NCBI GenBank assembly: GCA_963555755.3
Contig: OY820905.2
Span: 2,144,001 to 2,208,000, forward strand
Length of the DNA stretch: 64,000 nt
Source of the DNA: Nitrospirales bacterium
Lineage (GTDB): Bacteria > Nitrospirota > Nitrospiria > Nitrospirales > UBA8639
Direction of reading: 5' to 3'
Under the pieces are notes generated by a model. The model did not search any database, was not told where the DNA came from, and saw only the letters and a list, made by a program, of their open reading frames with translations. Within the stretch, counting starts at the first letter, position 1, and every line of letters starts with the position of its first letter. Both the position numbers and the translations under genes were made by a program. Shown here piece by piece: positions 11,721-13,177 of the stretch.

Positions 11721-11840
11721 CCGGAATCCAGGGTGGGATGAGGCTGTCTGGGTCTGTTGAATATTTCAGGTTCAAGGCCCATAGATGCTTCAGGTAAGCC
11801 TGCTCGCACCAGTGGGAGGGAACGTTCAAAAAAGCATGCC

Positions 11841-13056
11841 CTTGTATAATGCAAGGAAGGGTTGTAGTCCAACTCACACGAGCTGCCTCTTGTCTGAAGA
11901 GGGCATAGCCAACGTAGGGAAAAGGCTGTACCCTCACGGTATTGTGAATCCTGGCATGATAGACCGTTTGCCCTATGGGAATCAGCCCGTGACTCAGCGC
12001 AGGTCGTCATGCCCTTTCTCTGATGAACCCGAACGGTTGCCTGGGACACCAAGCCCGTATCAACAAGGTTGGGAGACAGAGCGATGAAATCAAAATCCTC
12101 AGAATTGTTTATCGGTATCGACATTTGTAAAGCTCGATTAGACGTGGCAGACAATGCCAATTCGCTTCCCTGGTCGGTAGCCAACAACGACGCCGGCATC
12201 GCCGCGCTGGTGGAGCGGCTCCACGTCCTTCACCCCACTCTCATCGTGATGGAAGCCACAGGGGGGCTGGAAACGCTTCTGTATGCGGCCTTAACCACCG
12301 CCGGGTTGCCGGCGGTCGTCATGAATCCCCGTCAGGTGCGGGACTTTGCCAAGGCCCTGGGCACCCTGGCCAAAACCGATGCCCTGGACGCCCGAATCTT
12401 GGCGCGCTTCGGGGCCGCGATCCAGCCGGCGGTCCGGCCCATGAAAGACGCCACCACCCAGGAATTGACGGCCTTGGTGACACGGCGACGGCAGTTGCTC
12501 GCCATGCAGACGGCGGAAAAAACCCGCCTCCAGCAAGCCGCGAAATGGATCCGCAAAGATATCAACGCCCATATCGCCTCCCTGGAAAAACGGCTCCACA
12601 CAATCGAAGGCCACATTGCCGAGATTATTAAAAAAACCCCCGGCTGGAAAGAAAAAGATTCGCTCCTTCGAAGTGTGCCGGGGGTGGGCAACGTTTTGTC
12701 CATGAATCTCCTCAGTAGCCTGACCGAACTCGGAACGCTCAACCGAAGAGAAATCGCTACGCTGGTGGGCGTTGCCCCCTTAAACCGCGACAGCGGAAAC
12801 GTTCGCGGCAACCGAAGGGTCTGGGGAGGCCGGGCCCAAGTCCGCGCCGCCCTCTACATGGCGGCCCTGTCCGCATCACGATTTAATCCGGTCATCAAAA
12901 CATTTTATCAACGCCTGATTGCACAAGGAAAAAAACCCAAAGTGGCCCTCACCGCCTGTATGCGAAAACTTCTGGTCATTCTGAATACGATGGTCAAAAC
13001 CCAAACAGCATGGAACCCAAATCAATTGTCACCCCTTGACTTTAATCACGGTTGCT
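11841..13056 (+). mobile_element. IS110-family element copy 2, complete (recombinase 12084-13058)
   Basis: CT core at both ends (11841-42, 13055-56). -10 TATAAT at 11845 and -35 TTGACT at 13036 join with 17-bp spacing on circularisation. Confidence 0.95.
11857..12074 (+). ncRNA. Predicted IS110 bridge RNA (copy 2)
   Basis: Target-loop guides GTTTGCCCT (11966-74) and GACTCAG (11991-97) and donor-loop guides ACGGTTGC (12033-40) and ACAAG (12063-67) match the flank and junction sequences. Confidence 0.8.
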
Positions 13057-13177
13057 GAGTCTTTCCGAAGGGTCTATCCAGCAAGGCCGCAGCCCTTTTG
13101 ACGCGCGGAGCGTACTCTCAGTACGTGAGCACGGCAAAATGGCGAGAACGCCGCTGGCGGCTTTTTTCAACATTCCC

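Follow-up and report, generated by a model that had tools for sequence, protein, structure and literature searches.

The window, a 64,000-nucleotide stretch of a Nitrospirales genome, very likely contains an intact, multi-copy bridge recombinase element of the IS110 group that occupies a single site in every readable copy and likely moves as IS621 does. The element spans 11843-13056 on the forward strand, or 1,214 bp counting one CT core, and a joint that skips exactly 1,214 bp (the empty site) is present in public run X4. Its anatomy, copy pattern, site, motifs and catalytic residues, as well as the covariation of guides with targets in relatives, are observed directly here. The features of the element and its site are:

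5029-6214 (+), copy 1, 93% identical, with the same left flank and a replaced right end
11834-11842 (+), left target GCATGCC plus the CT core, as at 12/12 left junctions
11845-11850 (+), TATAAT, −10 hexamer of a predicted circle-junction promoter, from sequence
11856-11952 (+), variable 5′ part of the predicted bridge RNA, a long hairpin by prediction only
11953-12014 (+), predicted target-binding loop, from the fold, a consensus fold with compensatory pairs, and covariation
12028-12075 (+), predicted donor-binding loop, from the IS621 register, covariation and the consensus fold
12084-13058 (+), IS110 recombinase ORF of 324 aa (PF01548, PF02371)
13036-13041 (+), TTGACT, −35 hexamer within the coding sequence, from sequence
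13048-13056 (+), left donor ACGGTTG plus the CT core, from sequence
13057-13072 (+), right target GAGTC and the remainder of a small CCTGAG-n-CGAAGG hairpin, as at 12/12 right junctions

Judged by its sequence, the element has every feature of the IS110 group that a sequence can reveal. The recombinase scores above the NF033542 cut-off, and its only relatives of solved structure are ISCro4 (PDB 9t56, E 1.8e-37) and IS621 (PDB 8wt6, E 4.9e-35). Residues D13/E57/D99/D102/S237 align with the catalytic D11/E60/D102/D105/S241 of IS621. Together with the profile matches, these residues give the combined DEDD and serine recombinase character of the group. The nearest homologues, at 83-90%, are found in Nitrospirota genomes, which points to a Nitrospirales bacterium as the likely host. 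The gene extends to the right core, so that the left end (241 nt) is the longer one. The RNA is predicted in this longer left end, which is the arrangement of the IS110 group; in the IS1111 group it is in the right end. The 5′ part of the predicted RNA is longer than in most relatives. An earlier note on this DNA had proposed that a circular form would place TTGACT 17 nt from TATAAT. Joining the two ends at CT does put 17 nt between these hexamers, and the TATAAT overlaps the right donor TGTAT (11843-11847). The motifs listed in that note were all located: ACGGTTGC occurs twice, in the loop at 12033 and in the right end at 13048, ACAAG is at 12063, GTTTGCCCT at 11966, GACTCAG at 11991, and the stem arms at 11953 and 12007.

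The genome contains 13 copies, 11 full-length, one without the right end (copy 1) and one without the left part. A 14 bp target, GCATGCC-CT-GAGTC, is common to 12/12 left and 12/12 right junctions; every left junction reads GCATGCC-CT and every right junction CT-GAGTCTTTCCGAAGG. The empty 14-mer occurs 72 times in the genome, and the CT core is found in all 72 empty sites and at both ends of the 11 full copies. The 324-aa ORF is intact in 11/11 full copies. Copy 1 does use the same left flank, as had been suggested. From about 6215 its −35 box, left donor and core are replaced by an IS1380-like element, of which about nine more are found in the genome, and its donor guides have drifted. Copy 1 is likely immobile because the −35 box, left donor and core are lost. 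In a different copy, at G000:C1 343016-344223, 6 nt are deleted from the linker that separates the two loops, without damage to either loop or to the read-through frame discussed below.

The left end was read in the IS621 register as described in PMC11208158. The target loop would consist of a stem (11953-11961/12004-12013), a structural CG (11965-11966), a left target guide at about 11968-11974, a right target guide at 11991-11997, and handshake bases at 11998-11999. The donor loop would consist of a GA linker, a left donor guide at 12033-12040 (8/8), a right donor guide at 12059-12067, and handshake bases at 12068-12069. Both segments proposed for the donor loop are real, although the right one is not a 5-nt match: the guide is discontinuous, with 9 nt pairing with 7 donor bases (7/7) and two bases flipped out. 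Similarly, the right target guide matches 7/7 as a reverse complement, as had been claimed, while the left target guide is probably about 7 nt long with 6 matching, rather than 7/9. On the left side of the target loop, the conserved CG precedes an 8-nt stretch that has the core at its end. The G that had been counted as the first left-guide base is likely structural, like G48 of IS621, because it is invariant in 41 relatives and agrees with target position 1 in only 10/42. We rejected the 9-nt register, in which agreement was 21/46 at position 2 and 41/46 at position 7 in addition to the low value at position 1. A perfect 9+5 guide site has no exact match in the genome and two with one mismatch, which shows the left guide to be imperfect. 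Within the left end, the 9 nt that agree best with the left target plus core (8/9) are those of the 3′ arm of the stem, 12007-12015. This arm is paired in the consensus fold and matches at least 5/7 of the element's own target in only 6/62 relatives; the match is probably due to chance. For the handshake, C11998 pairs with G7 of the donor and G12068 with C7 of the target, each being position 7 of the non-cognate DNA. Handshake pairing after strand exchange is described as favoring insertion in IS621 (PMC11208158, PMC13626964).

When the left end was shuffled 5,000 times with its dinucleotides preserved, the four guide matches never arose together at the thresholds of the earlier note. Taken singly, the left-target match arose in 35% of shuffles and the 5-nt donor match in 25%, compared with 2.1% for the right-target and 0.2% for the left-donor match. 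The fold of the single sequence is no better than that of shuffles (z −0.58), yet it shows both loops. A search of Rfam returned no family over the element.

Relatives provide a test of this decoding. We gathered 223 loci, 183 with a plus-strand protein match and 92 with both ends readable. The 91 dropped comprised 36 with no right end, 23 with no donor loop, 15 partial, 11 with no left end, five distant, and one of odd length. The readable loci gave 72 distinct left ends, and the target loop was decoded in 57/72 of these, yielding 46 distinct guide pairs. The right guide agreed with the element's own target at 208/230 positions (shuffle 105 ± 7), and five left positions agreed at 170/230 (shuffle 90 ± 7). 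In both cases 0/20,000 shuffles scored as high, a significance that is overstated since the shuffles ignore kinship. Several rows in which the end of the left guide is one base off were kept, which lowers the score. The match of the left donor in relatives is partly circular, since right ends were located with it. The first handshake base fits pairing after exchange in 45/46 for each loop and tracks a non-C target base in 6/7. In 62/72 relatives, TTG(A/C) and the hexamer that follows the core are separated by 17 nt. The consensus fold, built from 41 of 62 candidate stretches, has 25 pairs, 14 of them changed on both sides, and leaves the guides unpaired except for two weak pairs in the donor loop. 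Thus in these alignments the loops track their own targets, which supports the decoding, and the IS621-type bridge architecture proposed for the predicted RNA is borne out by covariation and by the consensus fold.

Two other observations were made among the relatives. Six of them (L112, L128, L176, L184, L054, L050) have target sites of the form CC-CT-CTCCC, which we take to resemble BoxC-type palindromes. Of one close relative there are two halves (L218 and L192, G137:C15), 2.5 Mb from each other and both broken at an identical position by another insertion sequence, which suggests a rearrangement between two copies of the interrupting insertion sequence.

The core of the target lies within a small CCTGAG-n-CGAAGG palindrome. 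Its stem has four plain pairs, a tandem GA/GA and one closing pair (−1.8 kcal/mol as DNA). The genome has 183 copies of this hairpin; of four control patterns, three occur 3, 5 and 5 times and the last one 33 times. The pair just outside the motif is C-G, T-A or T-G in 172/183. In the general sense of a 20-40-bp imperfect palindrome in high copy, the site fits a REP. It falls outside the CGTC superfamily of REPs, the site being TGCC-CTGAG with a 4-bp stem and tandem GA/GA. Hairpins of the form CCTGAG-n-GAAG are also the sites of 21/72 distinct elements, many from Dehalococcoidia and spread over at least four parts of a quick tree (6/72 rows skipped; L033, probably mis-decoded, left out).

The claim that the element targets a hairpin has two parts. 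The sequence of the site lies in a hairpin, while a need for the fold is not supported by the genome counts. The recombinase could require the fold of the target in addition to guide pairing, as a target stem-loop is reported to gate ISPpu10 (10.64898/2026.03.19.712850). Consistent with this, the hairpin is present at all 12 right junctions, a short left guide pairs only imperfectly, and similar hairpins recur across the tree as just described. We nevertheless consider such a requirement unlikely. Of the empty sites matching target positions 4-14, 75/81 carry the hairpin anyway, so that 12/12 has a chance of about 0.4 with no gate at all. Close relatives (L002, L004, L109, L014; 76-86% identical) use CT-GA sites that do not have this hairpin. 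In run X7 a single contig, which is weak evidence, has five right-target bases after the element and then departs from the repeat.

The recombinase ORF ends in TGC-TGA, in which the T comes from the core and the GA from the target DNA. The earlier note had recognized that target DNA completes this stop, and it does so in 11/11 full copies. Among the 72 distinct elements, ten reach the core without a stop, and in every one of these the gene is closed by a T-GA supplied by the target; L033, probably mis-decoded, is left out of this count. Another 61 have their own stop, in 41/61 at the TGA of the −35 box, and only 26/61 have a target starting with GA. Loss of the stop needs three changes on the tree, and the well-supported branches force at least two; on this sequence tree the borrowed stop arose in two or three lineages. 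In a circle, the frame would cross the whole left end in 81 codons and terminate at an ATGA that overlaps its own start codon.

The borrowed stop could act as a switch, either because the protein made from the circle differs from that of an integrated copy or because ribosomes reading through would unfold the RNA. The read-through frame is open in 12/12 left ends of this genome and in the six closest of the distinct elements; in these six, each of the other two frames has 2-6 stops. It is also open in a separate lineage (L045). Of the elements that have their own stop, 8/61 have this frame open, in line with the chance expectation (8.3). The repeated loss of the stop, always at CT-GA targets, points in the same direction. 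Against this, the frame is broken in L014, L141, L116 and L218, and the six close elements descend from one ancestor. Substitutions show no bias by codon position (41/34/44). When the changes seen in relatives were re-placed at random, the frame stayed open in 23-57% of trials, or 48-83% when limited to variable columns, and the frame of L045 is open in 26% of shuffles. Loss of the stop may simply be tolerated where the target supplies one. As a protein, the read-through frame was rejected: it has no match in Pfam or NCBIfam and, again, no codon-position bias. A regulatory switch is thus very unlikely. We give equally little credence to the broader reading of an integration-dependent recombinase gene, in which a circle-specific protein form or RNA state would control the direction or timing of transposition and lock two guide positions, coupled with cross-phylum convergence of IS110 elements on an undescribed tandem-GA hairpin repeat. 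A regulatory role of the borrowed stop, if real, would give insertion sequences a new means of sensing integration; otherwise, the finding is ordinary. In L004 (1240-1480), a one-base insertion in the donor stem-loop puts the read-through frame in phase with the recombinase start, and the gene is frameshifted.

We found no description of an IS110 element with a target-supplied stop in the literature searched, including passages of 10.1101/2024.04.26.591405, PMC12288879, 10.64898/2026.08.14.744561 and 10.1101/2025.05.14.653916; ISfinder and the supplements of bridge-RNA papers may list such elements.

The target site owes its abundance to its position in a small hairpin module, which a 214-bp MITE carries. 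The nested elements around the insertion are:

11500-11749 (−), ISCR/IS91-like remnant, non-coding, from downstream of the lost transposase, by blastn
11745-11749 (no strand), left 5-bp target duplication TGTCT, from a MITE-free joint in two runs
11750-13177 (no strand), MITE-like repeat holding the IS110 element, 214 bp when empty, from duplications in empty copies
13178-13300 (−), right duplication TGTCT (13178-13182) and C-terminal ISCR transposase remnant, by match to an ISCR fragment

The proposed nesting of a hairpin in a MITE in an ISCR remnant holds at all levels, with one correction. The MITE starts at 11750, the outer inverted repeat, and not at 11818, which is an inner inverted repeat; the right end is 13177. 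Among long-form empty copies, 29/54 are 214 bp long and 33/54 have an exact 5-bp duplication at the outer end, while a near-match duplication at the inner end is found in 0/54 long-form copies and in 1/13 of the short form that begins at the inner repeat. The repeat is short and non-coding, has terminal inverted repeats and a target duplication, and is present in many copies, as is typical of MITEs. About 70 of the small hairpins are in this one MITE-like repeat. The hairpin is an optional module of the MITE, because most of 285 related repeat ends do not have it. Genome-wide, the MITE core (window 13077-13177) gains several other small hairpin modules at fixed places. We compared the core to E. 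coli genomes for likeness to enterobacterial ERIC sequences, which are about 127 bp long and duplicate TA; blastn gave only a 26-nt chance match, and the 214-bp form duplicates 5 bp, not TA. Between pairs of MITE ends 0.9-2.6 kb apart, a search for an autonomous partner turned up nothing besides MITEs filled with IS110 and ordinary genes.

The MITE interrupts an ISCR remnant. Its flanks are joined at other loci that contain Y2 transposase fragments, and the MITE-free joint 11743->13177 is found in two public runs. The stretch 11500-11749 has 36 blastn matches in the genome, several of them contiguous with the piece from 13178 onward, and the sister loci hold Y2_Tnp/ISCR clade Ia fragments (PF04986, and NF052416 below its cut-off). 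In 13178-13300, 14/23 residues are the same as in an ISCR fragment from another locus of the genome (E 2e-07). The same non-coding ISCR end is present in the window in three pieces (4140-4320, 11500-11749 and 13364-13443), with about 36 genome-wide, and the three ISCR sister loci whose ORFs were listed have at most transposase fragments.

Many copies of the IS110 element could have spread as a filled 1.4-kb MITE through the transposase of the MITE and not by bridge recombination. Two copies fit this well: near 2353104 and 344224 of G000:C1 the MITE parts have 1 and 2 differences and the IS110 elements 3, with differing 5-bp duplications, and one filled MITE of the short form carries its own 5-bp duplication. 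The filled unit near 2353104/344224 may have moved once as a whole. As an account of most copies, hitchhiking has little chance of being right: 8/11 full copies have 1-10 differences from one another, against mostly 15-55/68 in the left parts of the MITEs that hold them, and in one pair the IS110 elements are one base apart and the left flanks 50/68 apart. Empty MITEs also exist 3-4 differences away, and an autonomous partner with these MITE ends did not emerge from the end-pair search above. Near-identical elements in dissimilar MITE copies point to separate recent insertions of the IS110 element.

More widely, the window from 1 to 25000 is dense with mobile DNA. Three head-to-tail group II introns with reverse transcriptase ORFs lie at 15911-22646, with a period of 1,994 bp, and domains of another intron adjoin this array. 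Other features are:

27-1073, HTH_38 transposase-like ORF
6313-6882, IS1380 fragment
7812 and 8052, two tRNAs
9186-9683, DDE_3
13979-14989, IS1595
22750-23730, Y1 transposase

How the element moves can be proposed by analogy to IS621, and its circle, promoter, RNA and chemistry are all inferred from that model. As in the IS621 work (PMC11208160, PMC13626964), the RNA and protein needed for a rare excision would come from weak read-through transcription, and the excised element would be circular. In this form the −35 in the end of the gene would be placed 17 nt from TATAAT, so that the bridge RNA and the gene are expressed. A recombinase tetramer would then pair the loops with the circle and the target, and strands would be exchanged at the CT core. 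The target loop would read about 6-7 bases to the left of and including the core and all seven from the core rightwards, and the donor loop 8 + 7 bases, with both handshake bases set to pair after strand exchange. The 214-bp MITE spreads the hairpin module by its own route, leaving 5-bp duplications and creating many likely harmless landing places. The lineage has lost its own stop codon and uses the T-GA gained on insertion. No circle junction was seen in eight public runs, all of them assembled into contigs, from which rare forms are lost. In two RNA runs the element is covered by contigs, which are blind to the start, strand and level of the RNA.

The insertion of IS110 elements into repeated palindromes has long been known, e.g., for IS621, ISPpu9, ISPpu10 and ISPa11 (PMC1525189, PMC3184786). 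The closest parallel is IS621 of E. coli, with its 177-nt bridge RNA (PMC11208160, PMC11208158, PMC13626964). It is described there with a CT core, a left-end RNA with two internal loops, a sigma-70-like junction promoter, an 8-nt left donor guide, a discontinuous 9-nt right donor guide, handshake bases, and insertion into a repeated palindrome; our element has the core and the palindrome, and the RNA with its guides and handshake bases and the promoter are predicted for it. They differ in the left target guide, which is 9 nt in IS621 and about 7 nt here. The 7/7 right target guide and the canonical pair at the equivalent of position 161 are natural here, whereas they are engineered extensions in IS621. 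Our element also has a longer 5′ part (left end of 241 nt) and a target-supplied stop, and it sits in a CCTGAG-n-CGAAGG hairpin carried by a MITE instead of in an enterobacterial REP. ISCro4/IS622 (PDB 9t56; 10.1101/2025.05.14.653916) is the best solved relative and is described with the same bridge design, which is predicted for our element; it is distant in sequence and has another target.

ISPpu9 and ISPpu10 of P. putida are reported to have all copies at one position of a repeated palindrome and a 2-bp core (PMC1525189, PMC12288879), as here. ISPpu10 has a hybrid junction promoter and needs a stem-loop 5′ in the target according to the same report that describes its gating (10.64898/2026.03.19.712850), while here the stem spans the core and its 3′ side. 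The CGTC-tagged REPs (Di Nocera 2013, PMC3733652) are likewise small palindromes with a 4-6-nt loop, in high copy and sometimes nested, and the targets of some relatives begin with TGTC or CGTC. The REPs of that description have a CGTC/TGTC tag followed by an AT-starting stem of 8-9 bp, which our site does not have, and its hairpin motif was not found in the text of PMC3733652 or in four of its supplements. The literature searched likewise gave no description of this element or its hairpin, which ISfinder and bridge-RNA supplements may list. ISPsp10 (PMC4133298) is described as having a transposase with no stop of its own, the stop being provided by the target site. It differs in having a two-ORF transposase and a TA duplication, is not an IS110 element, and has no guide RNA.

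The RNA-guided mechanism is already known, and the additions made here are small, consisting of a target family and of a stop codon that the insertion site completes. The added family is the small hairpin CCTGAG-n-CGAAGG, in which relatives from Nitrospirota and Chloroflexota also sit. Distant from the enterobacterial models, the element provides a clean natural case of targeting by bridge RNA. Its predicted RNA naturally has the extended right guides and the post-exchange handshake that were engineered in IS621, along with a shorter left guide, which makes it a reasonable ortholog to test.
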